Shown: positions 36,822-56,821 of the stretch, piece after piece
Numbering within the stretch: the first letter of the stretch is position 1
How the letters are laid out: every line of letters begins with the position of its first letter
Origin: an uncultured bacterium
GTDB taxonomy: Bacteria; Bacillota_I; Bacilli_A; RF39; UBA660
Assembly (NCBI GenBank): GCA_949291455.1
Contig: CASEVQ010000002.1
Span: 5,763 to 69,762, forward strand
Direction: 5' to 3'
DNA: 64,000 bases
Made by a program: the position numbers and the translations under genes
The notes under the pieces: model-generated
Databases searched by the model: none
Told to the model about the DNA's origin: nothing
Seen by the model: the letters and a program-made list of their open reading frames with translations, nothing else

Positions 36822-39800
36822 ATTAGAAGTAAAAACTCAAGAAAGATTATTACATAAAGTGTTTGAAGAAAAACTTGATTATACTTATCTTGGTAATTTT
36901 GAAGATAGAGAAAATAATTCAAATATTGAAGAAGAATTACTTTTTAAATTTTTAATAAAGAAATATCCTGAAGAATTAGCTCGTAAAGCAATTGCAGAGT
37001 TAAAAAAGGTGGCTCATAATGAAACTAAATCATTATATGAAGTTAATAAAGAAGTTTATGAGTTATTAAAATATGGTAAAGGTATTACTCTTTATGTAGG
37101 TCAAAAGGAAGAAAAAATATATTTTATAGATTACGATAATTTTGATAATAATGGTTTTTATGTTGCAGAAGAAGTAACTTATAGAGGTCAAAATGAGAAA
37201 AGACCAGATATAGTTGTTTACATAAATGGTATTGCTATTGGTGTAATTGAATTAAAAAGAAGTACTGTCTCTATAAATGAGGGAATAAGGCAAAATCTTG
37301 ATAATCAAAAGCCTATATTTATTGAAAGATTTTTTACAACAATTCAATTTATTGTAGCAGGGAATGATTCAGAAGGTTTAAAATATGCAACAACATTAAC
37401 TCCGGCAAAATATTATTTGCCATGGATTGAGGATTATAAAGCTATAGGAAAGTTACATGAAAAAGTAAATAATCTTATTGATAAAAATGACTTGTTGATA
37501 GATCAACAAATATCATCATTATTTGAAAAGGAAAGATTGCTTGATTTATTGGATAATTTTATTGTATTTGATGGTGGTATTAAAAAAGTGCCAAGATATA
37601 ATCAATATTTCGGTGTAACAAATGCCAGGGAATTTGCAATGAAACATGAGGGAGGAATACTATGGCATACTCAGGGATCAGGCAAATCATTGTCAATGGT
37701 CTTAATTGCAAAATGGATATTATCCCATATTGCTAATTCAAGAGTATTAGTATTCACTGATAGAAAAGAATTGGATAAGCAAATTAAAGATGTGTTTGAA
37801 AATGTTGGAGAAAAGATTCATAGAGCAACAAGTGGTAGCGATTTATTGCAATCTTTAAATGAATATTCAAAAGGCAGATTAATATGTTCTTTAATACATA
37901 AAGTAGGGAGTTTTGTAGATGAAGAGTCAGATAAAAATTATTCTGAATATGTAAAAGAACTAACAAAATATAAAAACGAAAATTTTTTAGCAAAAGGAGA
38001 TCTATATGTATTTGTAGATGAATGCCATAGAACTCAAGCAGGTTTATTACATGATGAAATGAAACGATTATTACCTAATGCAACATTCTTTGGTTTTACA
38101 GGAACACCATTGATGAAGAAATCAAAGGCAACTACATTAGAAAAATTTGGTAAATATATTCATACATATAAATTCGATCAAGCAGTAAAAGATGGTATTG
38201 TTGTTGATCTATGTTATGAATCAAGAAATATAGAACAAAGAATAAATAATAAAGCTAAAATTGATGAATGGTTTGAAGCTAAAACTGCTGGATTAAATGA
38301 ATATGCAAAACAAAAGCTTAAAGAAAGATGGGGAAATCTTCAAAGTATTACTAGCTCTGGTAGTAGATTAGAAGAAATTGTTAAGGATATTATCTTTGAT
38401 TTTGAAAAGATACCTAGACTTGAACAATGTAAGGGAACTGCTATGTTAGTAGCAAGTTCAATATATGAAGCTTGTAGATATTGGGAAATTTTTCAATCAA
38501 AAGGATTTGATAAATGTGCAATAATATCATCATACTCACCATATATAGCTGATATAAAGGGTGAAGAAGATGGTGAATTTACAATATCTGATAAGCAAAA
38601 AATCTTTGAAGTATATGATAAAATGTGGAATAAAAATAAATACTCTAAATTAAGAAGTGATAATGAATATGATGATTATACTCAATGCTTTGAAGACGAT
38701 GCAATTCATAAGTTTATTAATAGTCCATCAGAAATGAAAGTACTTATAGTTGTGGATAGACTTTTAACAGGTTTTGATGCTCCTTCTGCAACATATTTAT
38801 ATATTGACAAGAAAATGCAAGATCACGGTTTATTTCAAGCTATATGCCGTGTAAACAGGCTTGATTCAGGCAAAGATTTAGGATATATAGTTGACTATAA
38901 AGATTTGTTTGAAAATATTGAGGGTGCTGTAGAAGATTATACTAATGGTGCATTTGATAATTTTGATAAAGACGATATTACTGGGTTATTGAAAGATAGA
39001 TTAAAATTCGGTAGTGAAAGATTAAATAACGCATTAAGAAAAATTAAATCAATATGTGAACCTGTTGAAAATCCTAAAGGAACACTTGAATTTTTACATT
39101 ACTTTGTTGCTGAAGATTTAGATACTATAAGTGAATCTAGAGAAGATAATTTAAAAAATACTGAAGCAAAAAGAGTTGAATTTTATGATGCCGTATCTGA
39201 TCTTGTTATTGCGTACACTAATATTGCTGATGAGATGACTAAAGCCGGTTACACAAAAGAAGAAATACAACAAATAAAAGAAAATGTTAATTTCTATAAT
39301 AATGCTAGAGATGAAGTTATGAAATCGGCTGGAGATTATATTGAACTTAAGAACTATGATAGTTCAATGAGGTATATGATTGATAATTATATAGGTGCTG
39401 AAACATCAGAATCTCAATATAAATTAGATGAAGCAACATTATTAGACGTGATAGTTGCAAGTGGATTAGATAAGGCAACTGAATCAATGCCTAAATCATT
39501 TAAGAAAAATAAAAAAGCAATGGCTTTAGCAATAGAAAATAATATTGCTTCAACTATTATAAATAATCAAAATCAAAATCCTAGATATTATAGTAAAATG
39601 TCAGAACTTTTAAGTAAATTAATTGAACTAAAAAAGGAGCAAAATCTTGATTATCAAGCTTACTTAGAAAAATTAATTGAACTTGTTAAAAAGGTTAAAA
39701 AGCCAGAATTAAGTGGTCAATATCCTAAATCAATTCATAATGCAAGATTAAGAGGATTATTCGATATTTTGGATAGAAATGAAGAAGAAACACTTGACCT

Positions 39801-39951
39801 TTATAATATTTTAACTAATAATGTACCTAAAGACTTCATGGATTCAAAGATGAAACAAAGAGAATTAAAACTATTATTATCCGTAAAATTAAATGATAAT
39901 TCTAAAGTAGAAGAAATCTTTAACCTATGGAAAAATACAAGAGGGTGTTAG
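36805..39951 (+). CDS. hsdR: Type I restriction endonuclease subunit R
   Basis: RPDIVVYINGIAIGVIELK, WHTQGSGKS, DECHR, GFTGTP, LLTGFDAP, QAICRVNR. Confidence 0.97.
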   Translation: MSRINELEVKTQERLLHKVFEEKLDYTYLGNFEDRENNSNIEEELLFKFLIKKYPEELARKAIAELKKVAHNETKSLYEVNKEVYELLKYGKGITLYVGQKEEKIYFIDYDNFDNNGFYVAEEVTYRGQNEKRPDIVVYINGIAIGVIELKRSTVSINEGIRQNLDNQKPIFIERFFTTIQFIVAGNDSEGLKYATTLTPAKYYLPWIEDYKAIGKLHEKVNNLIDKNDLLIDQQISSLFEKERLLDLLDNFIVFDGGIKKVPRYNQYFGVTNAREFAMKHEGGILWHTQGSGKSLSMVLIAKWILSHIANSRVLVFTDRKELDKQIKDVFENVGEKIHRATSGSDLLQSLNEYSKGRLICSLIHKVGSFVDEESDKNYSEYVKELTKYKNENFLAKGDLYVFVDECHRTQAGLLHDEMKRLLPNATFFGFTGTPLMKKSKATTLEKFGKYIHTYKFDQAVKDGIVVDLCYESRNIEQRINNKAKIDEWFEAKTAGLNEYAKQKLKERWGNLQSITSSGSRLEEIVKDIIFDFEKIPRLEQCKGTAMLVASSIYEACRYWEIFQSKGFDKCAIISSYSPYIADIKGEEDGEFTISDKQKIFEVYDKMWNKNKYSKLRSDNEYDDYTQCFEDDAIHKFINSPSEMKVLIVVDRLLTGFDAPSATYLYIDKKMQDHGLFQAICRVNRLDSGKDLGYIVDYKDLFENIEGAVEDYTNGAFDNFDKDDITGLLKDRLKFGSERLNNALRKIKSICEPVENPKGTLEFLHYFVAEDLDTISESREDNLKNTEAKRVEFYDAVSDLVIAYTNIADEMTKAGYTKEEIQQIKENVNFYNNARDEVMKSAGDYIELKNYDSSMRYMIDNYIGAETSESQYKLDEATLLDVIVASGLDKATESMPKSFKKNKKAMALAIENNIASTIINNQNQNPRYYSKMSELLSKLIELKKEQNLDYQAYLEKLIELVKKVKKPELSGQYPKSIHNARLRGLFDILDRNEEETLDLYNILTNNVPKDFMDSKMKQRELKLLLSVKLNDNSKVEEIFNLWKNTRGC

Positions 39952-39957
39952 ATACAA

Positions 39958-40659
39958 ATGCTAATAAATAACTACAATATAGAAATCAATAAAAAAGATG
40001 TTAAAAATATAAATCTTAAAGTGTATCCTGATTTATCTATTAAAGCATCAGTCCCCAAAAATATGAATATATCTAAAGTGAAAACAATGGTAATTTCTAA
40101 AAATGAGTGGATTAAAAATCAATTAAGAAAATATGAAGAACAAAATCGTATTTCTAAAAGGAAATATGTATCTGGAGAAGATCATTATTTAAATGGGAAA
40201 AGATATATTCTTAGAGTTTATGATTCAAATACTCCAAGTGTTAAAATTGAAAAAAATAATATATTAGCAATGTATGTAAGAAAGTCTTCAAGCATTAAAA
40301 ACAAAGAGAAATTATTAAATGAATTTTATAAGGATAATTTAAAAGTTAAAATTGATAAATTTATGCCTAAAATTGAAGAAAAAATTGGAGTTAAGTCAAA
40401 TAGTTATTTTATCAGAAAAATGAAGAATAAATGGGGGAGTTGTAATACTGACAAAAAAAATATAGTATTTAATCTTGATTTAGCCAAAAAGAAAGATGTA
40501 GAAATTAAGTATGTAATAACACATGAATTAATTCACTTAATAGAAAGAAAACATAATGATAATTTTAGATTACTTGTGAATAAGTATTGTCCTAAATGGG
40601 AACAATATCATGATTCGCTAAATGAAGTATTAAATGATAATAAAATGTTTGAAAATTAG
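39958..40659 (+). CDS. YgjP/DUF45 (M48-like) metal-dependent hydrolase, Type I R-M associated
   Basis: MKNKWGSC and YVITHELIHLIERKH. Confidence 0.9.
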   Translation: MLINNYNIEINKKDVKNINLKVYPDLSIKASVPKNMNISKVKTMVISKNEWIKNQLRKYEEQNRISKRKYVSGEDHYLNGKRYILRVYDSNTPSVKIEKNNILAMYVRKSSSIKNKEKLLNEFYKDNLKVKIDKFMPKIEEKIGVKSNSYFIRKMKNKWGSCNTDKKNIVFNLDLAKKKDVEIKYVITHELIHLIERKHNDNFRLLVNKYCPKWEQYHDSLNEVLNDNKMFEN

Positions 40660-40768
40660 TGAATAAGCAGTAATAAATACAAAAATGTGCTATAATTATA
40701 CATAGATAATAGAGTTACATTTCATTTAATGATGGAGTGTGCTCTATTTTTTGATTGGAGGTGTTAAA

Positions 40769-43700
40769 ATGATTGATAACATTATGTTAGATGTTGAATT
40801 AAAAAAGAAAGATAAAGAAGATATGAAAACTATTGAAATAATACGAGAAGAACTTAAAAATTATAATATGATCGATTTTATAGAAAAAGTTTCGGCTCTT
40901 ATACTTATTCCAGAGAATCAAAGTAAATCAGTTATATTTCAAACAATGATAAGTACTGCTATATCTTTAAATGAGTGCAACTATAATAAAGATAATAAGA
41001 TGAGTTACGGAAAATTCAAGCAATTTGTTTATAAATTCTCTAATTTAAATAAAAAAGTTATGATTGATCCTCCAGAATTTCCATTTGTATTACCAGTTAT
41101 CTATTATGATAATTACTATGTTTTTATGGGTTCTAATTCCTTATCGCCATTATATGTTAATCAAATGTTAAAATTATTTAGTATATATAGTGATAAGTTA
41201 GATCCTACGGAATCCAAAATATTGAAAAAATTAATTAATGGACTGTTGATTATATCAAGCAAAATATTTTTGAAATTAGATATTAATTTTAATGATTTAA
41301 AAAGTTTTAATAAGGATATTGATATAAAGATATTACCTTCCAATATTATGAATAAATACTGTGATATGGTTAAATTTGATACAGAAGAATTAAAAACTTT
41401 GCTAGGGGAAGATTATAGTGACTTAATTATTAATTTTGGTGATATTTCAGTAAATGAAATAAGTAATTTTGACAATCAAAAATTTTATAGAAAACCATTT
41501 ATAATTTCTGATAAGTTCGCAATTATATTAGATGTTACGACTATTATTTCTTTAATAATGAATTTAATTATTAAAAGATTTATTAAATGTAATGAAATAA
41601 ATATATTCACAGAATATAATAAATTAAGTTTACTTAATTTAAACAAAGATTTTTTCAGAATGGGCTTTCAAGAACTTGATCCTAAGACGTTTAGTATCGT
41701 TTTAGATAGAAATGAGAATATTAATGAATCAATATATATTTGTGGAAACGATATTGTATTTTATAATTTAGTCTTATTTGATAACGGACAAAATTATGAA
41801 AACGAACAAAACTATTATCTTGACATTGATAAACACTATATTGCAAAAAGAATAAAATATATATCATCACATCTAAAAAAAGAGAATATAGCTGAAGATA
41901 AGATTATTACAATAATTACTCCAACAACATTAGGAAGAAATATGTATTATATGTTAAGCGTTAATAAAAGTCATAATTTGCTTACATTAAGTCAATATGA
42001 AATAAATGCAATCGCTATTAATGAACAGGATAATTTAATGTTTTTATACAGATATATAAAAGCTAGAAATAGATTAGAACATTACCATAAAAATTTATTT
42101 TCAGAATTAAATATAGTAGCATTATATTCTGAACATGATAATTCGTTTTATTTTAGTGATGATTTTGATACCAAGGAAACACCAATGTATCTAATAGGTG
42201 AATATAGTAGCGATTATATTTTAAAATCATATATAAATGAGTCTTTTCATTTGGCAAAATATAAAAATAGATTTTCTATGATTGAAGTAATAAAACAAGA
42301 TGATAACATTTATTTTGCGCCAGGTTTATTTTTTAATAGACAATTAAATAATCTAATTGAATGTAATAAATTTTTTATTTGGGTATTTAGTGATGAACAA
42401 ATTATCGGAAATCTGTATTCATCTGTGAAGTTAATAATAGATATGATTTCATACTGGCTATCACAATTTTATGATTTTCTAAGTTTAATTAGTGGTGTAT
42501 TCAATATTGTAATCCATTGTGATGACAGTTTAAATATAATTCAATATGATAAAAACGAAAAAGCAGGCGAAATAAAGTTTGTCATAAATAATAATACATT
42601 AGATTTATACTTTATGAAAAATTCTCTTAAATATTTTGATGATAATGGTAATTCTAAAGAAAAGGAATTTATTTTTAATATTATTAATTATATTTGTGAT
42701 GAATATTGTATAAATATAGATCCAAATCTTATAGATAAGAAATTTGAGAATACCTATAAAAAGAAAATTATAACTATGAATTCTCTAGAAGATGCTTATA
42801 TGTTGCCATTTGATGATCAACCTCTTGTAAAAGTTAATAGTTCTGATATAAATTTAATTTTAGATGACGTTGGATTATTTTTGAAAAATGAGCTAAACAT
42901 AGATTATGGGAAAATAAATGATTATAAAGTTTTAAATCATATTGTTGGATTTCTGTATCATAAATTATTAAATATTGTTTCAAAGTATAAAAAAGAGCAG
43001 TTAATAGATTTCTTATATACTGAATTCGAAAAAAATTTATCATCAATGTTAATTAGGCAATCTAAATATGCAAACGATATAGCATGTTATCCAAATAGAA
43101 AAACGGAAATAAATAATATTATAAATGAATTAAACAGAACATCAGTTGCTTTAAAATTTTTAATTGAACTTGTTGGTTCAACGAAAGTTATTGGTATAGA
43201 AGATATATCTATATATGAGTTAAACTATGCTCTTTCACTTTCATCTACAATAATCGATTTTGCTTATACATGTGATATTTATAATTATAATATGGCAGAA
43301 AATACTTTGACATTATTGAATTCAAATAGGATTGGCTATAATAGAAATTTCTTAAATCGTGTTAATAAAGTACTAAAATCTGCTAAAACGGAAAAAATGT
43401 CTCCTGTTATTAAAAATAAACGTGAGCATATATTTAAATATACAGATATAGCAAAAAAAGAGATTCTTGGATTTGAAGATTCGTTTTTTGAAGAGTTTGG
43501 TTTTATGTTTAATGATTTTACTGAAGTTACTGTTTCATTGCTAGAAATAGCAAAAGATCAAGATAGTACATTAAATAGTGTTTTTAGTTTTACAAGAGAT
43601 GAAATAAAAAAATATATAAATAATTGTATAAGTAATGAAACAATTGATAGTATTATTGACTATCTTTCTCAAATTGAAAGAGATGATTATTTATTACCAT

Positions 43701-44374
43701 CTACTCCCTATAAAAAAGAAGATGTATATCCTTGGCGAAATAATAGAGAGTTGTCATTAAACAGAAAACCGTTGATACAATATAAAGATAAAATAATATA
43801 TGGTTATAGAACCTTGATTAATTCAGTGAATTTTCTCTTTGAAATAATAAATAATGGTACCTTTAAATCTCACAACCCTAAAATGAAAAGATACATCTCT
43901 GAAATTTCAAGAGAAAGAGGAGATTATTTCAATGAACTGGTATTTAATTATCTTTCAAGTTATGATGATTTAATTGTAGATAAAAAAGTGAATAAAATAA
44001 ACAAAAAAAGAATAGTGGATAGTAATAATAAAATTCTAGGTGATATTGACATAATAATTATATCAAAAAGAAAAAAGAAAATTATGATTTGTGAAACCAA
44101 AAATTTTGAATTATCTAGAAATATGTATGAATTACATTTTGAATATAAAGATATGTTTGATCCTAAAAATGAAAAGAGTTTTTATAATAAACATATGAAA
44201 AGAGTAAATTGGTGCAGGAAAAGTATTGATGAAATTAAGAAACATTATAAATTATCAAATACAAATTGGATGATAGATTATTGCTTTATTGTCAATGAAC
44301 CATTAGTTAGTAATAAGGCAATGAAAGCTAATGTGAAAACTTGCACAATAGAAGAATTGGATAAATATATATAA
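40769..44374 (+). CDS. large protein with C-terminal PD-(D/E)xK nuclease-like domain
   Basis: RGDYFNE...GDIDIIII...ICETKN near the C-terminus; RBS GGAGGTG before ATG 40769. Confidence 0.7.
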   Translation: MIDNIMLDVELKKKDKEDMKTIEIIREELKNYNMIDFIEKVSALILIPENQSKSVIFQTMISTAISLNECNYNKDNKMSYGKFKQFVYKFSNLNKKVMIDPPEFPFVLPVIYYDNYYVFMGSNSLSPLYVNQMLKLFSIYSDKLDPTESKILKKLINGLLIISSKIFLKLDINFNDLKSFNKDIDIKILPSNIMNKYCDMVKFDTEELKTLLGEDYSDLIINFGDISVNEISNFDNQKFYRKPFIISDKFAIILDVTTIISLIMNLIIKRFIKCNEINIFTEYNKLSLLNLNKDFFRMGFQELDPKTFSIVLDRNENINESIYICGNDIVFYNLVLFDNGQNYENEQNYYLDIDKHYIAKRIKYISSHLKKENIAEDKIITIITPTTLGRNMYYMLSVNKSHNLLTLSQYEINAIAINEQDNLMFLYRYIKARNRLEHYHKNLFSELNIVALYSEHDNSFYFSDDFDTKETPMYLIGEYSSDYILKSYINESFHLAKYKNRFSMIEVIKQDDNIYFAPGLFFNRQLNNLIECNKFFIWVFSDEQIIGNLYSSVKLIIDMISYWLSQFYDFLSLISGVFNIVIHCDDSLNIIQYDKNEKAGEIKFVINNNTLDLYFMKNSLKYFDDNGNSKEKEFIFNIINYICDEYCINIDPNLIDKKFENTYKKKIITMNSLEDAYMLPFDDQPLVKVNSSDINLILDDVGLFLKNELNIDYGKINDYKVLNHIVGFLYHKLLNIVSKYKKEQLIDFLYTEFEKNLSSMLIRQSKYANDIACYPNRKTEINNIINELNRTSVALKFLIELVGSTKVIGIEDISIYELNYALSLSSTIIDFAYTCDIYNYNMAENTLTLLNSNRIGYNRNFLNRVNKVLKSAKTEKMSPVIKNKREHIFKYTDIAKKEILGFEDSFFEEFGFMFNDFTEVTVSLLEIAKDQDSTLNSVFSFTRDEIKKYINNCISNETIDSIIDYLSQIERDDYLLPSTPYKKEDVYPWRNNRELSLNRKPLIQYKDKIIYGYRTLINSVNFLFEIINNGTFKSHNPKMKRYISEISRERGDYFNELVFNYLSSYDDLIVDKKVNKINKKRIVDSNNKILGDIDIIIISKRKKKIMICETKNFELSRNMYELHFEYKDMFDPKNEKSFYNKHMKRVNWCRKSIDEIKKHYKLSNTNWMIDYCFIVNEPLVSNKAMKANVKTCTIEELDKYI

Positions 44375-44408
44375 AATAAGAGTCGACTGAATCAGATCTT
44401 TTAATATG

Positions 44409-44681
44409 TTAATCTGTATGAGTATCTTCTTTATCATAATTCCATTGAATGGTTGCAAGACTTTTTAGAAATTCAACATCAATATCAAAGCATTTAATTA
44501 CGTATTTAGTAGGTACACAATGAGATGGTAAATATTTATTTGGATACTTATCTCTAAATTTCTTTTCAATATTTCTTTTGATAGTTCCTGCAACTGATTG
44601 AGTAAAATCTGCTATTTTCATTATATCTTGAATCGATACTCATGGTTTAGCTAATATATTTAATATTTCATTAGCTATCAC
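44409..44681 (-). pseudogene. excisionase-like gene with nonsense codon
   Basis: GTG start; IANEILNILAKP*VSIQDIMKIAD aligns with TAKETLTLISKQWCDLEDLRKLTG (9133-9372); TGA at 44642-44640. Confidence 0.65.
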
Positions 44682-45027
44682 AATAAATCCCCCCCTTTTT
44701 CAAAAGGTAGTATATTAATCACTTATTATTAGAAATCGGTCAAGAATAATACAGTTAAAAGATAAAGTTCTTTTTTCTCAAAATGTAAAATGAAATCTTC
44801 TCATTTTGTAAAATGGTTATTTTTAATTAGGCATATCGTGTCTAATTTTATTGGTACCTAAAATGATAAATTTAGCAAAAACAGCGAATAGTAACATCAA
44901 AATAATCATGTCTCAAAATAGGACTTCTCTCATAAAAATATTATATAAAACTGGCTTATAATGTGGCAAAAATGTCTTTGAAAAATATTTGACAAATTGC
45001 TAATTTTTTTTAGCAAAAATAAAATGG

Positions 45028-45056
45028 CCCCTGAAGGATCCATAATGCTCCTTTTT
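45028..45056 (+). repeat. att core (outer right junction) + terminator-like hairpin
   Basis: CCCCTGAAGGA (matches 5015-5025), then imperfect AAGGATC/GCTCCTT stem and T-run. Confidence 0.65.
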
Positions 45057-45179
45057 CACATTTATTTTTTTAGACTATTATTAACTGATGAATTTCTTTT
45101 TTTAGAAAAAAGAGCATATGATATAAAATTTATAAAATGTGATGTATAATATTATAAAAAGATTTGGTGATGTCAATAA

Positions 45180-45830
45180 ATGAAGAATATAAAAAGAAAT
45201 ATTGTATATATTGGTTATGATTCATATTACAAAGATACTCTTAAATTACGTGATACAAAAATAAATAATATTAAACCAAATTTAATTAATATTGATACAT
45301 TAGAAGAACTTGATAGAAAACAAGGATTCTTGTTGTTACTTACAATGGATGAATTATATGATTATTTTCCTAATATAGTAGATATATTTGAACCAGATGT
45401 TTATGAAATTGATAGATATTTGAGAAAAAAGTTTAAAAATTTTGAATACGTAATTGTAATTTCAATTGAAGAGTTTGATTATGGCCATATACCTTTTTCT
45501 AATATGTATGTAGTATTTGCAAATAACTATTTCAATACAGACGAAGGTATTAATGTCTTAATAGATAAAATATCTAAAGAATTTATATCTAAGAAAGAAA
45601 GTAAACTATCAAAAATAAAATGTAATAATGTAGAAAAATTAAGAACTTTTATTAAAAAGTCTAAGAAAGATTTTTTTACAACAGAAGAAATAAAACAAAA
45701 ATTAAATGTAAATGAAAAATGGATTCAAAGATATATGAAAGAAATGAATAATATTTATAATAATATAGGCTATAATAAAAGAAAAAGGTTATGGTATGTT
45801 GTAAAAAAAACAACACGAAAAAATAAATAA
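45180..45830 (+). CDS. protein with C-terminal winged HTH (putative regulator)
   Basis: FTTEEIKQKLNVNEKWIQRYMKEM...IGYNKRKRLWYV resembles HTH_11-type wHTH. Confidence 0.65.
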   Translation: MKNIKRNIVYIGYDSYYKDTLKLRDTKINNIKPNLINIDTLEELDRKQGFLLLLTMDELYDYFPNIVDIFEPDVYEIDRYLRKKFKNFEYVIVISIEEFDYGHIPFSNMYVVFANNYFNTDEGINVLIDKISKEFISKKESKLSKIKCNNVEKLRTFIKKSKKDFFTTEEIKQKLNVNEKWIQRYMKEMNNIYNNIGYNKRKRLWYVVKKTTRKNK

Positions 45831-45943
45831 AAGCAATGAAAAACGTAGAAATACGTTTTATTTTTTTGTCCATCACAAAACACTAGTCCAGCAAAAATTT
45901 TAATTAAGAGTTATAGTTATATCAAGAAAAGGAGGAATAGCAT

Positions 45944-46648
45944 ATGTTAGAGTTTGTTGAAAAACTATTAAGTTCACAAGATAACATTATAGATCAGCTA
46001 AAATTATTAAGAGAAAATAAAGATAATAAGGAGGTTAAGAAATATATGCGAGCTCTTGTTAAAGACAATAACTCGCCATATTTCAAATATTGTATTGACA
46101 AATATTATTTTAATAAAGATGTAAAGGAGGTAAAACCATCAATAAGACCATTAAGACCACTGTATCATTTGAGAAAAACAAAAAAAATACAGAGTCTTTT
46201 AGAATCTAGAAATAATATTATTGATCAACTTAAGTTACTAAAAGAATATAAAGGTACTAAATATGTTGATACTTATATTAAAGAATATTTAGAACTTTGG
46301 TCAAATGAGTACGAAGCTTACTGCATTCAAAAATATTACTATGATATGGATGTTAAAGAAGTAGAACCTAATGCCAAAAGTCTTAATATTACTTTATATA
46401 GAATTTCTTTTAAAGAAACAGAAAGTAAACAAGAAAAAGACAAACAAAATGGTTATGCAAAATCAGTCAAGAAAAACGATAAAATAAAAATACTAGATGG
46501 TCCTTTTAAAAATCAAATCGGAATAGTAAATTCCTTTGATAGAGGTAATTCTAAAATATTTGTTACAATTTGTCTTTTTGAAGAAAAATTTAATATAGAA
46601 TATGATGGTAAGTTTGAAAAAATTAAGGAGGCTAAAAGTGAAAAATAG
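45944..46648 (+). CDS. tandem-repeat protein with C-terminal NusG-type KOW domain
   Basis: Two ~60-aa repeats (LL.S..NIIDQLKLL.E.K...YCI.KYY...DVKEV.P); KNDKIKILDGPFKNQIGIV...KIFVTICLF. Confidence 0.75.
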   Translation: MLEFVEKLLSSQDNIIDQLKLLRENKDNKEVKKYMRALVKDNNSPYFKYCIDKYYFNKDVKEVKPSIRPLRPLYHLRKTKKIQSLLESRNNIIDQLKLLKEYKGTKYVDTYIKEYLELWSNEYEAYCIQKYYYDMDVKEVEPNAKSLNITLYRISFKETESKQEKDKQNGYAKSVKKNDKIKILDGPFKNQIGIVNSFDRGNSKIFVTICLFEEKFNIEYDGKFEKIKEAKSEK

Positions 46649-49319
46649 AATAGAGTTACATGCTAAAACAAAATATAGCATAGACCATGAAAGTACAATC
46701 GATATTAAAGAATTAATATTAAAGTGTGCCAGTAATGGTGAAAAAGGTGTAGCTATTGTTGATAAAGATAGCGTCCTTAGTTTTTTAAAAGCAGAGAAAA
46801 TACTAAAAGAATTAAATATAAAAAATTTTAAATTAGTATATGGAATAGAAGTAAATGTTTTTATTGAAAAACTAACTTATAAAGCTGTAATTCTATTAAA
46901 GAAAAGAAATGGACTTTCCACACTATATAGAATGTTATCCCCTTACTTCACTAATAATAAATTACTATTAGAAGATTTAATGCTTAGTAAAAAGAATTTT
47001 ATAATTGGTTTAATATATGAACAAGACAATTATAATTCTAATATATTACAATATTTTAATTATGTAGAAGTAGATGATAAAGTATCTGAAGAAGTAATTG
47101 CCAATTTAAAAAGAAAGACTTTAGTAGTTTACTCAAATAGAATTAATGCCTTATCAAAAGATGAAGAATTAAGTAAAAAAGTTCTTTATAACAAATTACA
47201 TATAAAAGAAAAAATTGATACTAGAATCTATAAAAGTACACAAGAAATTTTAAAACAGGTAAAAGATATGGAAATTGTTATTGATAACCCTAATAAAATA
47301 TTTAATATGATAGAGAATTTCAACTTGTTAGAAAATAACATTTATTTACCTGTAGATGATAATTCATATATTGATTTGTTAGTGAATACTAAACTGAATG
47401 AAAAATATAATAATGATATTCCGTTGAAAGTAAAAAAACGTATTGAAGAAGAATTGAAACTTATTAAAGAACATAATTATGAAGGATTCATTAATTTATA
47501 TAAAAAAATAATTGATAAGTGCAAAGAAGAACAGGAAGAATATGTTATTTGTGATTACATTAATTATTTATATATTGCTTATTTACTAGGAATAACACAT
47601 TTTGATCCAATAAAGCATAATCTAAATTACGAACTTTTTTTTATCAATCATCCCAAAATCACCATTAAAATATCACCAGAATTTGTTAAAAAATTAAATA
47701 TTTTTATTAAAGAAGAACTAAATGTTAATATGATTAGATGTAAAGGATTGATGAGATTAAATAGTAGTAATGTTAAAAATATAATTAGTGATTATGAGAA
47801 AAAATATAATATTAAAATCTCTACTTCGGATAAGTTACTTATAAATAAATATTTAATGAATTATCCAATTAATAATTGGGCATTAACTCCAAAAAAATTT
47901 ATATTACCTGCTGGTGTTAATATATTTGACTTATCACCCCGTGAGCTTATAAAAGAAGATGATTCATATCATAGAGTTACAAATATGGATTATAAGGATA
48001 TTGAAGAAAATTTTATAACATTAGAATTAATATCAACCGATAAATTAATGCATTTAATGGAATTGAAAGACATTACTAAAGATAAGATAATTAATTGTAA
48101 CTATAAAGATAGTAATATTATAAAAAGTGAAGCTTTTCAAGATTATTTAGAATCTTATCAAAAAGATATATTATTGGATGATTTATATGAAGATTGCTTA
48201 AATAGCAAAATTGATTTGATTGAAATATTTAATATAATTAATGAAATAAAGCATGAAAAAAATATTTCTAATAAAACTAAGAAAATATTGACTAAAAACA
48301 ATATAGTAATAAACGACAAGAATGCTAATTTTATTTGTATAGGCATATTAAATGAAAGAACTAGATTAGAATATGAACTATTGTATTTTAAAAAATATTA
48401 TCCATTAGAGTACTATTATGTTTTATTAAAAGATTGTCCTTTTAATGATGTTATAGACATTATAAAAAATGGTTATGAAGAGGTTAAAAATAGAATTAAA
48501 GATTATTCAAAATATAGATATGAACATAAATATTTAAAGTTAGTAGCAAAGTTATATGAATCAAATATTAATTTTTCTATTGAAGAAAGAGAAATAGTAG
48601 AAGATTATTGTTTTGAATTAGATAAGGAAAATAAAAAAATAGTTTTAATAACTAATAAGACAAATAATGAAATTTATAAATATTTATCTAATAATTTATC
48701 TGTAATAGGAACAAGACCAATAAATGGAAAAATGCCTTATATGAGTAAAATAATCGCTAAATTAATAAGAATTAATAAAGATGTAATATTGTTTGGATTA
48801 GATGGAAAAACTAATTTTTATTTAGAATATCTATTATCTGAAATAACTAGAATAGATAGAAAAGCAATTAGGCAATATTTAAATCCATGTTCTTGCTATA
48901 AGGATAGTATTTTAACAATCGATGAAGAAAGTTATATTAATGGAATAAGATATTTGTTATATCATAATTTAACAATAAAAGATTACCATAATGTTAAAGA
49001 TATTATTATTGATGATGTTAATGTTAACATGATGATAGATAAATTAATTTATATGATTGAAGAGAGTGAAAGTAAAGTAATAATCATTGATAGAGTTGAA
49101 TCTATAGACGGTAATATTAGTAATACTTTAGAAAGAATAAAAGAAATTGCTAAATTAAAAAAACTTAATATTATACTTTTTACAAATCTAAAAAAAGAAT
49201 ATGAAGAATCTAACAAAAAGGATATATCTTCGTTTGAAAATAATGAATTGTTGGATAAATATGTTGATTATATAAATATTTTAGATGGTAAAGAGTTATA
49301 TCATATAAAGGAAAAATAA
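46638..49319 (+). CDS. degenerate PolC-like (PHP + palm) protein fused to a degenerate DnaB-like ATPase domain
   Basis: RIELHAKTKYS, VAIVDK, KLVYGIE, KRIEEELKLI, IAYLLGITHFDP and LYFKKYYPLEYY track PolC; LSVIGTRPINGK...IIIDRVESI...IAKLKKLNIILFTNL tracks DnaB. RBS AAGGAGG before GTG 46638. Confidence 0.8.
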   Translation: MKNRIELHAKTKYSIDHESTIDIKELILKCASNGEKGVAIVDKDSVLSFLKAEKILKELNIKNFKLVYGIEVNVFIEKLTYKAVILLKKRNGLSTLYRMLSPYFTNNKLLLEDLMLSKKNFIIGLIYEQDNYNSNILQYFNYVEVDDKVSEEVIANLKRKTLVVYSNRINALSKDEELSKKVLYNKLHIKEKIDTRIYKSTQEILKQVKDMEIVIDNPNKIFNMIENFNLLENNIYLPVDDNSYIDLLVNTKLNEKYNNDIPLKVKKRIEEELKLIKEHNYEGFINLYKKIIDKCKEEQEEYVICDYINYLYIAYLLGITHFDPIKHNLNYELFFINHPKITIKISPEFVKKLNIFIKEELNVNMIRCKGLMRLNSSNVKNIISDYEKKYNIKISTSDKLLINKYLMNYPINNWALTPKKFILPAGVNIFDLSPRELIKEDDSYHRVTNMDYKDIEENFITLELISTDKLMHLMELKDITKDKIINCNYKDSNIIKSEAFQDYLESYQKDILLDDLYEDCLNSKIDLIEIFNIINEIKHEKNISNKTKKILTKNNIVINDKNANFICIGILNERTRLEYELLYFKKYYPLEYYYVLLKDCPFNDVIDIIKNGYEEVKNRIKDYSKYRYEHKYLKLVAKLYESNINFSIEEREIVEDYCFELDKENKKIVLITNKTNNEIYKYLSNNLSVIGTRPINGKMPYMSKIIAKLIRINKDVILFGLDGKTNFYLEYLLSEITRIDRKAIRQYLNPCSCYKDSILTIDEESYINGIRYLLYHNLTIKDYHNVKDIIIDDVNVNMMIDKLIYMIEESESKVIIIDRVESIDGNISNTLERIKEIAKLKKLNIILFTNLKKEYEESNKKDISSFENNELLDKYVDYINILDGKELYHIKEK

Positions 49320-49320
49320 G

Positions 49321-49992
49321 ATGGACAAGGTTAAAGAATATATTTTAAACAATAAGATTACACTTGTTATTACTTCACCAAACTCAAAAATTTTATCTAT
49401 TATTAATTTACTAAATGAATTATCAATTAAAGGAAAATATAAGACTATTTTATTCAGTTTTAACATTAGCTGTAATTATTATTTACAAAAGTTAATATCA
49501 TTTCTATCAGGCATTAACAATAGTATAATCACAAAGTATTTTTATCCATATGTAATAAATAGTAAAAAGAATAGAGATAAGATTAATCGTAATAAATTTA
49601 TTGATTCATTAGAAGAAATACAGAGTAGCAATATTTTAATGAATAGTGAAAAATATGCTGTTGATAAAGATTATTTAGATTATATTCTAGATTACTCAGA
49701 AAGCAATGTGTTAATAATTGATGATTTTTATGCATTACTAGATAAGACAAAGTATAGTCTAGATGAAATATTAATAAAAGTAAAAGAGAAACAAGATATT
49801 CATTTAGTTTTGTTTATAAAGACAAAATATAAAGAAAAAGTAGTAAGACAATTTGCCGAAGTAATAAGAAATTATATTTTTATAGATGGATTTAATTATG
49901 AGGAATATAAAGAGATAAATATTAATATTTTAAATAAAACATTCAAATTGCAATTCAATAAAATGAATCAAATAATGAAGACAAACGATTAA
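49321..49992 (+). CDS. second, more degenerate DnaB/RecA-fold-like protein
   Basis: Similar to the C-terminus of the upstream protein (TILFSFN...NYYLQKLISFLSGI...KYFYP versus VILFGLD...NFYLEYLLSEITRI...QYLNP); LIIDD Walker B-like, no Walker A. Confidence 0.6.
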   Translation: MDKVKEYILNNKITLVITSPNSKILSIINLLNELSIKGKYKTILFSFNISCNYYLQKLISFLSGINNSIITKYFYPYVINSKKNRDKINRNKFIDSLEEIQSSNILMNSEKYAVDKDYLDYILDYSESNVLIIDDFYALLDKTKYSLDEILIKVKEKQDIHLVLFIKTKYKEKVVRQFAEVIRNYIFIDGFNYEEYKEININILNKTFKLQFNKMNQIMKTND

Positions 49993-50111
49993 GAAAATTG
50001 ATAAATTTGAAAATATATTGTAAGAGTTTATATTATTAAAGAGCATTGGAGTTTTTAAGAAAAGTAAGGGCTGATATGCTATACTAAGATTAGTAAGTTA
50101 GAGGTGAGTAT

Positions 50112-51347
50112 GTGAAATTAAAAATATTAAAAGGTACTAGTGAAATAGGTGGATGCATAACAGAAATAGTAAGTAATAAAGGAACAAGGATTATTATTGA
50201 TCTAGGCGAAGATTTACCAGATGATAATGTATCAAAATGTGAAAATCCAAATATTGATGGCTTAACTATAGGTGATAAAAAGTATGATGCAGTTTTTATT
50301 ACACATAGCCATGGTGATCATATTGGTCTAATAAATTATGTGTTAGATGGTATCGATGTTTATGTTGAACCTACTTCCAAAATAATATATAGTTTATTAT
50401 CTACTTTTACACATAAGAAAATAAAATTTAAAACTAAAGATATGTTTTTTAAAAAAAAGATAATAATTAATGATGATATAATTGTGACACCATATATTGT
50501 TGATCATTCATCATATAATTCATCAATGTTATTAATTGAGGCTGATGGCAAGAAGGTACTGCACACAGGAGATTTCAGAAATCATGGAGTTAAAGGTAAA
50601 TTGTTTGTACCAACACTAAAAGAAATTGGAAATGTTGATATAATTGTAACTGAAGGAACTTCTTTAAGTAGAGGTAATGTTAAATATAAAACAGAGGAAG
50701 ATATAGTTAAAGAAGCCAAAAGGGTATTTTATAACTATGACCAAGTTTTTATTTTACAATCATCAACAAATATTGATCGTATTAGAGGTTTTTATAAAGC
50801 AGCAACCGCAACTGACAAAAATTTTATAGAAGATCTTTTTACTTCAAATATAACAGTTTCTTTAAAAAATGATTCTATTCCTAATCCTAAAACATTTAAT
50901 GATGTTTATACATGGATACCAAGAAGATATCTAGACAAATCGTTTAGGTTTAAGAAAAAGTATTTGTTTCCTTTTTTGAAATATAGTAAGCAAAAATCTT
51001 ATGTTAATAATAAATATGCATTAATGGTAAAGACATCAATGATTGAAGACATAAAAAAACTATATAATAAAAATCATATTACTAATGCGTGTTTAGTATA
51101 TTCAATGTGGGAAGGATACAAAGAAAAAGTAGAAATGAAAACCTTTTTTGAAGAGGTGAAGAAATATGGAATTTCTGATATAATAAACATACATACTTCA
51201 GGTCACGCTGATAAAGAAACTCTTGGTTTATTAAGTTTTCTTAAAGCAAAAAAGATAATTCCTATTCATACGATTAAAAAAGAAGAATTATCCAATATTT
51301 TAGATAATGTTTATTTATTAGATGATAATGAAACATTAGATGTATAG
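50112..51347 (+). CDS. MBL-fold beta-CASP (RNase J-like) nuclease
   Basis: EIGG, THSHGDH, DHS, TGDFR, EGT, STNIDR, HTSGHA, PIH. Confidence 0.9.
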   Translation: MKLKILKGTSEIGGCITEIVSNKGTRIIIDLGEDLPDDNVSKCENPNIDGLTIGDKKYDAVFITHSHGDHIGLINYVLDGIDVYVEPTSKIIYSLLSTFTHKKIKFKTKDMFFKKKIIINDDIIVTPYIVDHSSYNSSMLLIEADGKKVLHTGDFRNHGVKGKLFVPTLKEIGNVDIIVTEGTSLSRGNVKYKTEEDIVKEAKRVFYNYDQVFILQSSTNIDRIRGFYKAATATDKNFIEDLFTSNITVSLKNDSIPNPKTFNDVYTWIPRRYLDKSFRFKKKYLFPFLKYSKQKSYVNNKYALMVKTSMIEDIKKLYNKNHITNACLVYSMWEGYKEKVEMKTFFEEVKKYGISDIINIHTSGHADKETLGLLSFLKAKKIIPIHTIKKEELSNILDNVYLLDDNETLDV

Positions 51348-51350
51348 AAG

Positions 51351-52790
51351 GTGATATTTATGGATAACATAAGTAATTTAAATATTAGTGGTATTGCTAA
51401 ACAAGTTATTAAAAGATATCTTGGTAAAAAAGATTATGTTATAAGAATTAGAGTAAATAAAAAACACAAAGTAGAAATTGTTGTATATTATGAAGGAAGA
51501 AAATCATTTGAAGTTAAAGACAATAAGTTATTGTTAGATGGTGCTTATTTCTTCACTAAAGGAAATAAAAAAATTGCACATTCTATGGAGATGGAAATTG
51601 CTTGTTTAACTAAATTAGGTTTTTCATTTAAAATTGGTGCCAAGATTGATTCTACTAATCAATATTATAAAGATGGATATAGATATCGTATTTTTGTAGA
51701 ACCTTCTAGTGCTAAAAAAGGATCTAAAGAATGTTATGACAATTATAAAGAAGAAATAAAAGAAAGAATGGAAGTTATTTTAGAAGCTTTAAAAAGATAT
51801 GATAATGATTTTATATATCATTATGATAATGAAACAAATATAAATAGTTTTTATACTAAAAAAGTTGATAATACTATTAATTATTTTAAATTAAATGAAT
51901 TATTAAAAATAGGTATAGATAACACTGTTAAACAAAAAGGCATTAAGAAAATCAAATTTAATGAAAAATTGGTTGGTTCCCAAACGACCTATACTGAAGA
52001 AGAATATAGAATAATAGATTCTATTATGGAAAATAGAATTAAGACATATAATTTTGGAGTTCTTTTAGAAGAAAATAAAGAAGAATATATCGATAACAAT
52101 GAAAAAATATATCAACAATTACTTATGAACAAGATGTTTGATAAAAACGAAAGAGAACAACTTTTCAAAGTGGATAATTGTCCTTTTAAAGATAGCAATG
52201 CATATGAAATGGAATATAACTTATATGCTGCAAATAGAACTAATCGTAAACAGAAAACAAAAAAAGGAAGAGTAGATAATATATTTATCAGTGGTAATAA
52301 GATTTTATTTACTGAATTAAAATATGACGAAAAAGTTATTGGCGGTACAAATGGAATTCATAAGCATTTAATTGATTTAATTAATGGATTTGAAAAAAAT
52401 GATGAAGCTTTATCTGAAATATATGACTATATATGTGATTACAATGATGTGTTAACTTATATTAATGATAAAGAAGAATATATTATTAAAAATGTGAAGA
52501 GATTTAATGACAAAGAAGTAGAAAGAGAATTTATAATTATATGTGGATATTCAAACAATAAAAGAGATATTGTTTATAATGAATTGGAAAGAGTTTATCC
52601 ACTAACAGGAAAAAATGCTGAAGTAGAAAAATCATATAATATATTTTTAGATAATAAAAAAATCAATTTAGAGAATATGACTACTGAAGAGTTGATTTAT
52701 TTACTTAAAAATAGATATCATTGTGAAACTAAGATTTTCTTAGTAAATAATAATTATACTAAATTTGAAATATATCAAAAAAAAGTATAG
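51351..52790 (+). CDS. putative PD-(D/E)xK nuclease
   Basis: YEMEY...GRVDNIFISGNKILFTELKY...GIHKHLID. Confidence 0.65.
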   Translation: MIFMDNISNLNISGIAKQVIKRYLGKKDYVIRIRVNKKHKVEIVVYYEGRKSFEVKDNKLLLDGAYFFTKGNKKIAHSMEMEIACLTKLGFSFKIGAKIDSTNQYYKDGYRYRIFVEPSSAKKGSKECYDNYKEEIKERMEVILEALKRYDNDFIYHYDNETNINSFYTKKVDNTINYFKLNELLKIGIDNTVKQKGIKKIKFNEKLVGSQTTYTEEEYRIIDSIMENRIKTYNFGVLLEENKEEYIDNNEKIYQQLLMNKMFDKNEREQLFKVDNCPFKDSNAYEMEYNLYAANRTNRKQKTKKGRVDNIFISGNKILFTELKYDEKVIGGTNGIHKHLIDLINGFEKNDEALSEIYDYICDYNDVLTYINDKEEYIIKNVKRFNDKEVEREFIIICGYSNNKRDIVYNELERVYPLTGKNAEVEKSYNIFLDNKKINLENMTTEELIYLLKNRYHCETKIFLVNNNYTKFEIYQKKV

Positions 52791-52879
52791 AGTATGTAAA
52801 TATGAAATCCTTTCATGATAACAAAATAATCTTTGATAGAAAGTGTATAAAATACAAATAAGTGATGATTATTTGAACT

Positions 52880-52909
52880 GTCAATGCGTTAAGCATTGAC
52901 TATTTTTTT
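52880..52909 (+). terminator. intrinsic terminator
   Basis: GTCAATGC-GTTAA-GCATTGAC plus T-run. Confidence 0.75.
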
Positions 52910-53330
52910 AATTACTTTAATAAAATATTACTTTTTTTAATAAAGATGTTATGATAATTATTACCAAGACTATTTTTAATAAAAGGTAAAAAAATTAGTA
53001 ATGTTTTAATTTGAAGTTTTCATATAAGAATAAATATTTGATTTATAATTATTCAATTAATTTTTCAGCAAACTATAATTTTTATGATTTAAAGTATATA
53101 ATAAGTCTTGATAAATTATATAAAATTCTTATAATTCATTATCTAAATTAATTGATAAATAAACAATGTTTCTTCCTATAATTATCTGTTTTATTTAAAT
53201 TTCCTATAATGACATTTTCAATAAACGTTTCGAATCAATAGTAATGTTGCATTTTAAGTTTAAATTAGAATTTATAATATCTTTACTTAATTTAATCATA
53301 ATGATAAAATTACTATGGTGATGATTAGTT

Positions 53331-53909
53331 ATGAAAAAATATTGGAAAATAATAATTATTATAGTTGGTATAATTGCTGTTTTTGCTTTGTTTTTATTAA
53401 TTTATTTTAAAGTTACTTTTATTGGAAAAGATGCTGTAAAAAAAATAGTTATTGATAATATGAATGTTTCAAGCAGTGATGTTTTTTTTGAAAGCATCGA
53501 ATTAGAACTTGATAAGAATTATTACGAAGTCGAAGTTTACTATAAAAATAAAGATTATGAATATAAAATAGATGCTAAAGAAGGTAAAATAATCTATACT
53601 GATTTTCAAAGTTACAACAGTGATAACAATACTAATAATAATGGAAATGGTAATGATAATTCAAATAGTAATGGAAATAATAATACTAATAACACAAAAA
53701 TTAGCTTACAAGAAGCTAGAAATATTGCTTTAGCTCATGCTAATTTAGATATTAGTGTTGTTAACATAGTAAAATGTGAAAGTGAATATGATAATGGTAT
53801 TTTAATTTATGAAGTAGAATTTACTTATAACAATTATGAATATGATTATAAAATAGATGCTAGGACAGGAGAAATTGTTAGCTTTGATAAAGATAATATT
53901 TATAATTAA
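53331..53909 (+). CDS. PepSY domain protein
   Basis: N-terminal TM; two YEVE...EY.YKIDA..G.I repeats joined by an Asn-rich linker. Confidence 0.9.
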   Translation: MKKYWKIIIIIVGIIAVFALFLLIYFKVTFIGKDAVKKIVIDNMNVSSSDVFFESIELELDKNYYEVEVYYKNKDYEYKIDAKEGKIIYTDFQSYNSDNNTNNNGNGNDNSNSNGNNNTNNTKISLQEARNIALAHANLDISVVNIVKCESEYDNGILIYEVEFTYNNYEYDYKIDARTGEIVSFDKDNIYN

Positions 53910-55117: not shown

Positions 55118-56821
55118 TTGATGGGGACTATTAGAGAATTTATGGATCAAGCTGAAGGAGGAAAATTAATATTACCATCTATACAAAGAGAATATGTATG
55201 GAACGAAGAACAAATCTGTAGACTATTTGATTCAATAATGAGTGAATATCCAATTGGTCATATGATGTTGTGGAAATTAGATGGAAGTAAAATAAATGAA
55301 AAAGGGATAACATTTTATAAATTATTAAATAATTATAATGAAATGATTCCAGAAAACAATGAGAAACTTGAAAACCCATCACCTGATAAAACTTATTTTG
55401 CTATATTAGATGGACAACAAAGAACACAATCATTATATATTGGTTTAAAAGGTTATTTAAAATTAAAAATATATAGAGCACGAAAAAATAATGTAGAATC
55501 CTATAAAAATAAATATTTATATATTAACTTAATAGGAGAAGAAAGTGAACTTGATGAATATAAATATGAATTTAAATTTTTTGCCGATGAAGAATTAAAA
55601 AACAAAGAAAATGAAAATAAATTTTTCTTTAGAGTAGGCAAAATATTGCAATATGATAGATTACCTAATATAAATGATATCGAAAATATTAAAAATATAC
55701 AACTTAATGATGAACAAAAAAGAATAGCTCAAGATATTTTATTTAATTTATATCAAAAAATAAATGTTAATGACAGTATACTTCATTGGGATATTATTTC
55801 AAGTGATAAGTCATTGGATAATGTATTAAATATTTTTATAAGAACTAATAGTGGCGGAACTGTATTAAGTAAAACAGATTTATTATTTTCTACTGTTGTA
55901 GCTAATTGGGAAGATGCAAGAAAAAATATTGAAGAGTTACTTGACAGAATTAATAATAAAGGTGGGCAAGGAGTAAGATTTAATTTTACAAAAGATTTTA
56001 TTATGAGAACTCTTATGTATCTATTGGATGAACCTGTAACATTAAAACTTAATGACATAAAAGATAATATACAAAGCATGAGAGAAAACTGGGAATTATT
56101 AAGTAGTGCTATTTCAAAAGCTCCATCAGTATTAAAATATGCTGGATATAATGGAGAAAATTTAATTTCATATAATGCAGTTATGCCTATAATATATTAT
56201 ATATATAAAGGAGGATTTTTAAAGAAAACTGACACAATAGATTATAATCCTATGGAAGAACTAAAAAAATATTTAGTAATTGCTCAAATGAAAAAATTAT
56301 TTGGAGTTGCAAGCAATAATACTTTAACTAATGTTAGAAATGCCCTTATTGACAAAAATAAAAAATTGCGTAATAAATATTTTAAACTCAATGATTTAAA
56401 TAATGTTAATATTGTAGGAAACAGAGATTTCAGTGTAAACGATGAAATAATTGAATCGTGGTTTGAAGAAAATAAAAATGACTATACTTTTATGATTTTA
56501 ACATTGCTATATCCATGTGCTGATATTGAAAAAGTTAAATATCATCAGGATCACATGCATCCAGAGTCTAAATTAAAAAACAATCCAAAATTTTACAATC
56601 TAAGAAATCGTTTAGCAAATCTTCAATTGCTTCCCGGAGATGAAAATGAAAGTAAAAACGACACAGACTTGGAAGAATGGTTAAACTTAGACAATGATAG
56701 ATTAAAAAATACAAGGTATCTACCAGAGTGTTCTAAAAAAATTGAAGATTATGAAATTTTTTTGGAAGAACGAAAAAAGTTAATGAAAGAAGAATTATTA
56801 AAAATTTTAAAAATTAATTAA
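55118..56821 (+). CDS. GmrSD-like DUF262 + HNH (DUF1524) protein
   Basis: LPSIQREYVW, LFDSI..YPIG, ILDGQQR, FIRTNSGG; C-terminal DHMHP...NLQLL...N.SK. Confidence 0.88.
   Translation: MMGTIREFMDQAEGGKLILPSIQREYVWNEEQICRLFDSIMSEYPIGHMMLWKLDGSKINEKGITFYKLLNNYNEMIPENNEKLENPSPDKTYFAILDGQQRTQSLYIGLKGYLKLKIYRARKNNVESYKNKYLYINLIGEESELDEYKYEFKFFADEELKNKENENKFFFRVGKILQYDRLPNINDIENIKNIQLNDEQKRIAQDILFNLYQKINVNDSILHWDIISSDKSLDNVLNIFIRTNSGGTVLSKTDLLFSTVVANWEDARKNIEELLDRINNKGGQGVRFNFTKDFIMRTLMYLLDEPVTLKLNDIKDNIQSMRENWELLSSAISKAPSVLKYAGYNGENLISYNAVMPIIYYIYKGGFLKKTDTIDYNPMEELKKYLVIAQMKKLFGVASNNTLTNVRNALIDKNKKLRNKYFKLNDLNNVNIVGNRDFSVNDEIIESWFEENKNDYTFMILTLLYPCADIEKVKYHQDHMHPESKLKNNPKFYNLRNRLANLQLLPGDENESKNDTDLEEWLNLDNDRLKNTRYLPECSKKIEDYEIFLEERKKLMKEELLKILKIN

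Follow-up and report, generated by a model that had tools for sequence, protein, structure and literature searches.

The window analysed here, a 64,000-nucleotide stretch of contig CASEVQ010000002.1 (GenBank assembly GCA_949291455.1, positions 5,763 to 69,762) from an uncultured bacterium of the RF39 lineage of Bacillota_I (UBA660), encodes an 893-amino-acid (aa) protein in which a core of the C-family DNA polymerase PolC is fused to the C-terminal domain of the helicase DnaB. To judge from its motifs, the polymerase is very probably dead and the DnaB part cannot work as a helicase; the protein is under purifying selection, and its gene lies in an operon with two nuclease-like genes whose motifs are intact. 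We propose, with a probability of about one half, that the fusion is a subunit without catalytic activity that serves as sensor or guard in a nuclease system, not described before, directed against phages or mobile elements. No description of the protein or of the operon was found in the literature, where supplementary tables of candidate systems could list it, and a preprint on modular defence discovery (10.1101/2025.09.30.679545) makes no mention of DnaB in the excerpts consulted. The architecture and the operon thus appear undescribed, and a role in defence is plausible.

The PolC-DnaB fusion protein

The fusion and its regions are located in the window as follows.
46638..49319, + strand: PolC-core/DnaB C-domain fusion, 893 aa, in a single open frame
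46638..47357, + strand: PHP domain without metal ligands, the best conserved region of the fusion (58 of 240 positions invariant)
47358..48602, + strand: palm, thumb and shortened fingers, without the zinc-finger insert; catalytic positions K340, T342 and E463
48663..49316, + strand: DnaB C-terminal (RecA-fold) domain, without the N-terminal domain, from a weak DnaB_C match and a profile search

The GTG start codon at 46638 stands behind an AAGGAGG at 46625-46631 and homologues start at the same residue; the open reading frame (ORF) listing also contains an alternative upstream ATG at 46602. Pfam recognizes a PHP domain (E 1e-8) and DNA_pol3_alpha (E 8.5e-11), PolC is both the top match in NCBIfam and the closest in PDB, and a profile alignment with intact PolC gave an hhalign probability of 99.4 over 605 columns, at about 24% identity. 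The A5 profile matched PolC at 1e-90 versus DnaE at 1e-17. With PolC (PDB 3f2b and 9qpc; TIGR01405, NF001688) the fusion shares sequence similarity, the PHP-palm-thumb-fingers order and a PolC-type ancestry, but it carries an added DnaB_C domain and is reduced elsewhere: no PolC N-terminal region, exonuclease or zinc-finger insert was aligned by hhalign (nor was an exonuclease found by motif search), Pfam gave no match to OB or HhH domains, and the one clamp-motif pattern used found no clamp-binding motif in the fusion clade. An earlier reading of the DNA letters alone (the sequence-only reading), which had described a catalytically dead PolC fused to a dead DnaB domain, was therefore right that the exonuclease insert and the N-terminal OB region are lacking.

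In the alignment with intact PolC, HPKITIK falls on VPDIDLN, WALTPKK on GQHPGGI and TLELIS on KLDILG, which confirms the register from which the replacement of PDID by PKIT, of HPGG by TPKK and of KLDILG by TLELIS had been read by eye. The three catalytic aspartate positions of the family correspond to K340 (47655), T342 (47661) and E463 (48024). In all 16 full-length members of the fusion clade none of the three is aspartate; the residues at 340 and 342 are free to vary, and that at 463 is glutamate throughout. Because a single glutamate cannot build the two-metal site of C-family catalysis, the polymerase of the fusion is very probably dead. The PHP domain has decayed as well, with ELHAKT, IVDK and YSNRIN in place of ELHAHT, ITDH and ATGDVH, and its metal ligands are lost; the changes to ELHAKT and VDK had been noted in the sequence-only reading.

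The C-terminal part matches DnaB_C weakly (E 1.2e-6), but a profile built from 14 DnaB-like C-domains (the fusion clade and stand-alone relatives) has replicative DnaB helicases as its top 11 PDB matches, in agreement with the DnaB-like fold first read there. The similarity to DnaB (PF03796) extends over the whole RecA-fold domain, which directly follows the PolC fingers; the linker and the DnaB N-terminal domain (PF00772) are missing, the latter from the whole fusion clade. The Walker A motif had been called degraded. This is correct for the Ser/Thr after the lysine, which is replaced by methionine, but the P-loop glycine and lysine in GTRPxNGK (48708-48731; G691 to K698) and the Walker B aspartate D818 are invariant in 16 of 16 members. 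The catalytic glutamate, motif H4 and the arginine finger (K-x-R) are lost, and with them gone the domain cannot be expected to do helicase work; since the P-loop lysine and the Walker B aspartate are invariant, it may still bind a nucleotide. By these features the protein is a descendant of PolC and of DnaB that does not belong with the active enzymes of either family.

A protein search with the fusion returned 33 matches, among them 15 full-length fusions at 50-98% identity, three fragments of the fusion clade, and five proteins of a sister clade (555-692 aa) without DnaB. Open frames of 886-900 aa are kept in 16 fusion proteins at 49-98% identity, with 167 positions invariant among the 16 full-length members, and the ratio of nonsynonymous to synonymous substitution rates (dN/dS), by a simple counting method, is 0.29-0.36 for the gene in four pairwise comparisons and 0.26-0.31 for four regions compared with locus L029. 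The fusion protein is under purifying selection, and the long frames together with a dN/dS of about 0.3 reject a recent pseudogene. An assembly chimera is rejected by the 15 full-length homologues, by the presence of the whole gene in three other assembled genomes, and by one contig of the independent run X2 that covers 45028-52997 and so the whole fusion locus. Neither of these two outcomes, which the sequence-only reading had named as fatal to it, has thus materialized, and the intact polC and dnaB that it wished to see elsewhere in the genome (1.09 Mb, 25% G+C, 88% complete) are found, together with dnaE, on other contigs. As to transcription, the one RNA-labelled run that shares words with the stretch (X1, share 0.08) yielded four contigs of 168-421 bases, possibly DNA, which give no evidence of transcription or of habitat, and a promoter scan was at chance level (92 versus 91).

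A selected, catalytically dead PolC clade is unexpected, because the three catalytic aspartates are called absolutely conserved in the whole C-family (PMC3919608, in the excerpts consulted). A further survey recognizes four C-family groups and, in the portions consulted, lists inactive members for other families only (PMC12926913); it was based on complete reference genomes, and strongly diverged sequences were discarded before tree building.

The operon and its relatives

The fusion gene is the third of six co-oriented genes that span 7.6 kb, and the other parts of the operon are listed here.
45180..45830, + strand: helix-turn-helix (HTH) protein, 216 aa, with an unassigned N-terminal part and a C-terminal winged-helix-like region (Pfam HTH_11, E 2e-4, below the cut-off)
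45944..46648, + strand: KOW protein, 234 aa, two tandem helical units and a NusG-like KOW domain (Pfam KOW, E 1e-4)
49321..49992, + strand: second DnaB C-domain, stand-alone and more degenerate, 223 aa, with a disrupted P-loop (ITSP-NSKI)
50112..51347, + strand: beta-CASP metallo-beta-lactamase (MBL) nuclease, RNase J-like, 411 aa, with HSHGDH, DHS, HTGD, HTSGH and PIH all present
51351..52790, + strand: PD-(D/E)xK-like putative nuclease, 476-479 aa, with D306, E319 and K321 invariant in 21 of 21 aligned proteins
52880..52910, + strand: intrinsic-terminator-like hairpin that closes the operon, with no second one in 44400-53400, where shuffled sequence would be expected to give 0.4

In an alignment of 11 homologues from operon loci, the invariant residues of the HTH protein cluster in its C-terminal part, and it is probably the regulator of the operon. 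Versions with an extra N-terminal domain of about 130 aa occur at L057 (12325-13374), L065 (14070-15095) and L066 (5820-6845). The KOW gene overlaps the fusion start by 11 bases; its product matches nusG in the C-terminal part only (E 1.3e-5), and the duplication of the helical unit is visible in the alignment. The MBL nuclease has the full motif set of RNase J and the beta-CASP proteins but, at 411 aa, scores 61.7 bits against a cut-off of 820. A separate MBL profile match of ordinary RNase J length is located elsewhere in the genome (C13), and from its length we infer that it is RNase J. The last protein has no match in Pfam, PADLOC or a PDB profile search, and Atlas gives REase-ARP/PDDEXK at 0.88, which is a lead only; we take the D306/E319/K321 pattern to be a PD-(D/E)xK nuclease motif. 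The motifs of both nucleases are intact in all loci read.

The operon MBL was found in 22 of 401 genomes of the host's family, in 13 of them at E < 1e-75, and 20 of the 21 MBL loci outside the source genome were read. In ten of the 13 genomes with a close MBL, a gene derived from PolC or DnaB lies next to it on the same contig. In G322 the HTH gene, two DnaB domains, the KOW gene and a dead PolC stand at the end of one contig, while a second contig starts with the MBL; the locus in G394 is cut short, and G319 carries a close MBL without a replisome-like neighbour. Gene order is the same at L027 and L028, and likewise at L029, which lacks the second DnaB gene; overall, the system is found in about 2-3% of the family genomes, with shuffled order. 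The full fusion was detected in 1 of 201 genomes, and the operon is absent from all three same-genus genomes searched. A phylum-wide search for the MBL detected it in 5 of 399 genomes, where two extended distant loci (G595, G490) have no replisome-like neighbour. In the reverse direction, short PolC paralogues were detected in 7 and dead DnaB domains in 6 of the 401 family genomes, counts that are floors, since scoring was confined to the top 3 or 7 candidates in each genome and the assemblies are not complete. Dropped from them were a G125 protein taken as host DnaB (from the length of its 451-aa frame alone) and 21 weak matches to host PolC (frames of >1300 aa).

Several parts of the operon are fused to each other in different relatives: a PolC palm fragment to the MBL (L059, L060), the MBL to a PD-(D/E)xK domain (L065), PolC to a second type of dead DnaB (P0072, P0089), and the N-terminus of the KOW protein to a dead DnaB (P0038). 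These fusions suggest that the operon parts form one complex. Two further proteins, P0036 and P0045, were disregarded as apparent assembly chimeras.

The operon-linked PolC cores are not uniformly degenerate. Among eight of them (the fusion and those of L008, L030, L057, L064, L065, L066 and L109), L065 and L066 keep all three aspartates and the other six lack the full triad, L030 and L057 keeping one aspartate. To judge from these sequences, catalysis is lost by degrees within the operon family. Catalytic loss, for which the sequence-only reading had proposed a family-wide check, therefore extends through the fusion clade but not to two of these eight PolC paralogues. The finding that was to have overturned that reading, acidic catalytic residues in the palm, has in part been made: the fusion has none of the aspartates but keeps the invariant Glu463, and the triads of L065 and L066 are intact.

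Additional arrangements were observed at individual loci. Two PolC paralogues share the L030 locus (3713-11473), one a dead PolC of 692 aa and the other a member of the fusion clade truncated to 491 aa; the nuclease genes around this pair are rearranged. Stand-alone proteins similar to the PolC exonuclease adjoin operon genes at L059 (9795-10826), L060 (9462-10484) and L116 (3104-3625), and in the first two the first acidic motif looks degraded. At L064 (6882-7682) the MBL is followed by a gene for an unrelated protein of 267 aa, in which a D...ELK pattern can be made out by eye; it may be a nuclease that was swapped in, and it had no match in Pfam or PADLOC. A more distant MBL clade (L068-L075) is apparently located in integrated elements, mostly directly 5' of a conserved gene of about 200 aa that is presumably ClpP-like; in two of these loci a relative of the KOW protein is encoded upstream.

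Proposed role and alternatives

That the fusion belongs to a conserved operon with two intact-motif nucleases, which the sequence-only reading had not noticed, alters its likely role. Of the roles first offered for it, which were a scaffold, a dominant-negative replisome modulator or a decoy, decoy or scaffold fits best. In the proposed defence system, the pseudo-PolC and pseudo-DnaB domains would form a complex with the nucleases and keep them inactive. A phage factor aimed at the host replisome might then bind the PolC or DnaB look-alike and act as the trigger; a phage replication intermediate, or a change in the nucleotide pool read by the retained P-loop, might serve equally. The nucleases, once released, would attack RNA and DNA, and the infection would be aborted. 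Host DnaB is indeed a target of phages: it is bound by a phage nuclease, which it neutralises (PMC13728149, in the excerpts consulted). A similar logic, in which a toxic effector is controlled by a non-catalytic or guarded look-alike of what the phage attacks, would be shared with Ronin, PARIS, PrrC-EcoprrI and Panoptes, of which Ronin and PARIS are described as decoy or guard systems (PMC12409349, in the parts consulted). The operon has, however, no protein family in common with these systems (PADLOC), and none of them is described, in the same parts, with a replisome look-alike as sensor. A narrower form of the proposal, which we regard as tentative and rather doubtful, is that the operon is an integrated decoy of the host's own replisome: on binding phage forks, or phage proteins directed against PolC or DnaB, it would set an RNase and a DNase free.

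The genes around the operon in the window are relevant to this proposal.
33768-40659: type I restriction-modification (RM) locus that encodes HsdR, a 1017-aa fusion of the methyltransferase with a half specificity subunit, and a YgjP-like metallopeptidase
40739-44374: 1211-aa protein, its C-terminal part weakly similar to the anti-phage protein Upx (70 bits versus a cut-off of 1900)
55118-56821: GmrSD-like HEC-05 candidate defence gene (E 1.5e-151), 2.3 kb downstream of the operon

The HEC-05 gene is identical in L027 and absent from the site in L028, and the upstream block is swapped for a type ISP/IIG RM system and GmrSD in L027 and for a type II RM system and GmrSD in L028. As defence genes are exchanged in this way between near-identical strains, the operon borders a variable defence site. 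Other copies are flanked by YhcG/PDC-S02 (L059, L062), by Fic (L029) or, nearby, by Mrr- and HNH-like genes (L062). The operon is patchy in its distribution and carries nucleases, and its defence neighbours are strong at the source site and mixed elsewhere.

A number of observations weigh against a defence role of this kind. The three strongly defence-flanked copies come from near-identical strains at one site and count once, and the flanks of L056, L057, L064 and L065 had no notable defence gene among the 62 selected flank ORFs scanned. Five of the six operon proteins have no match in PADLOC-DB 2.0.0 (2023) at E 0.01, and the KOW protein has one partial match (NsnC, 27 residues, E 2e-4). That all nine genomes with a short PolC paralogue or a dead DnaB carry a close MBL speaks for the proposal, but the co-occurrence is partly circular, as 6 of the 7 PolC and 4 of the 6 DnaB matches were in the profiles; only G322 and G240 are independent. 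Neither G319 nor any of the eight loci read from the more distant MBL clade has a replisome-like neighbour, and L057 has no PD-(D/E)xK gene, so that the parts of the operon are separable. Finally, because the L065 and L066 paralogues keep all three aspartates, some operon versions may use polymerase activity.

The anatomy of the operon and its fusions would equally suit a selfish toxin-antitoxin module, in which the dead PolC and DnaB domains, as stable partners, keep the nucleases neutralised, and addiction maintains the operon without any trigger from a phage; the patchy distribution is compatible with such a module, and DnaB can neutralise a nuclease (PMC13728149, as above). We consider this unlikely, as MBL genes without a replisome-like neighbour, in G319 and in all eight distant loci, indicate that such an antitoxin is not always needed, and an antitoxin of 893 aa would be costly. 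Also unlikely, and to a similar degree, is an accessory complex for DNA repair or damage tolerance akin to ImuA-ImuB-DnaE2, in which the dead scaffold recruits the active host polymerase and the nucleases to stalled forks; beta-CASP proteins do include DNA repair nucleases, and some relatives, including 37 of 85 short PolC-like proteins, keep the catalytic triad. What the operon shares with the mutasome is a cassette in which both a polymerase and a RecA-fold ATPase are inactive (PMC3919608 and PMC12926913, in the excerpts consulted), but there a dead Y-family protein serves an active C-family enzyme, whereas here the C-family enzyme is itself dead and its partners are nucleases. No inactive Y-family ImuB and no active DnaE2 family was recognized among the operon proteins by Pfam or NCBIfam. 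The operon contains no active polymerase, the fusion gave no match to the one clamp-motif pattern used, and the occurrence of the operon in a small percentage of family genomes, shuffled and adjoining RM genes, also argues against a repair complex.

A dominant-negative modulator, which would slow replication by competing with PolC or by poisoning the DnaB ring, appears improbable. Both dead domains derive from replisome proteins of which the host keeps active versions, but the role fits poorly because the parts by which PolC and DnaB dock are absent (the N-terminal, OB, HhH and clamp-binding regions of the former, the N-terminal domain and linker of the latter); identity to intact PolC is low, and the linked nucleases would be left unexplained. 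The fusion could also be a decaying relic, without a function of its own today, that stems from the replication module of a plasmid, phage or integrative element. The gradient of PolC paralogues from intact to fully degenerate would suit such a relic, as would the truncated L030 copy, a homologue that ends early (P0016), and a Butyrivibrio plasmid on which a distant MBL has dnaX, fragments of a polymerase and a DnaA-like gene in its vicinity. This reading is improbable as well, being largely refuted by selection (the 16 long frames, the dN/dS values of all regions, the invariant positions). It is also opposed by a tree that puts the operon proteins among PolC paralogues, away from a single phage DnaE, and by a scan of viral contigs that found just two weak, unrelated phage polymerases. 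A very small remainder of probability falls to other roles.

If the operon is a defence system, this would be a new form of infection sensing, with the replication machinery guarded by look-alikes. The operon would then supply a bait with which to find the phage proteins that attack the PolC and DnaB of Gram-positive bacteria, both of which are antibacterial targets. In the narrower form of the proposal, the decoy replisome would be the first immune role for a C-family polymerase scaffold, and it would make visible one end of a large class of short PolC paralogues, hitherto overlooked, in which fusion with DnaB domains arose repeatedly and independently.

Origin and the wider class of short PolC paralogues

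A quick tree built from 69 polymerase cores places the operon proteins on one branch, apart from the host PolCs of the same family (SH-like approximate likelihood ratio test, SH-aLRT, 99), and they group with PolC, apart from DnaE including the one phage DnaE. A recent duplication of the host polC is not supported by these separate branches. Nor is a phage origin of the module: when viral contigs were scanned, A1 detected two weak loci, which encode ordinary phage polymerases, and P0152 detected none, and a search of phage records with the MBL gave two partial matches at 27%. The PHROGs matches are generic polymerase and helicase families. As the tree included one phage polymerase and raised warnings of long branches and uneven composition, the module may yet have originated in a mobile element.

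A deep profile search collected 125 proteins of at least 430 aa, of which 85 begin at the PHP domain. At least one catalytic aspartate is lacking in 48 of these 85, versus 1 of 19 proteins with a long N-terminal extension, by an automatic alignment in which some of the sequences may be fragments. The short class includes further fusions with DnaB. P0152 and seven relatives (P0237-P0242, P0249) have a C-terminal DnaB with an intact Walker A motif and a variably degraded palm, P0079, P0098 and P0076 have an N-terminal DnaB with an intact Walker A motif, and more PolC-DnaB fusions are contained in a 70-member Atlas cluster. That these fusions sit on different branches of the tree from the fusion clade points to several independent origins of the architecture. 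Since a single operon family ranges by degrees from intact to dead paralogues, the change of an essential enzyme into a pseudo-enzyme can be studied in it directly.

A distant MBL is also encoded on plasmid pCY186 of Butyrivibrio proteoclasticus (L079, 9986-21095). McrBC and WYL genes precede it, and after it come dnaX, two fragments of polymerase III alpha (480 and 332 aa, both degenerate), genes for an AAA ATPase and a DnaA-like protein, and a complete polC; this set is possibly a related module in Clostridia.

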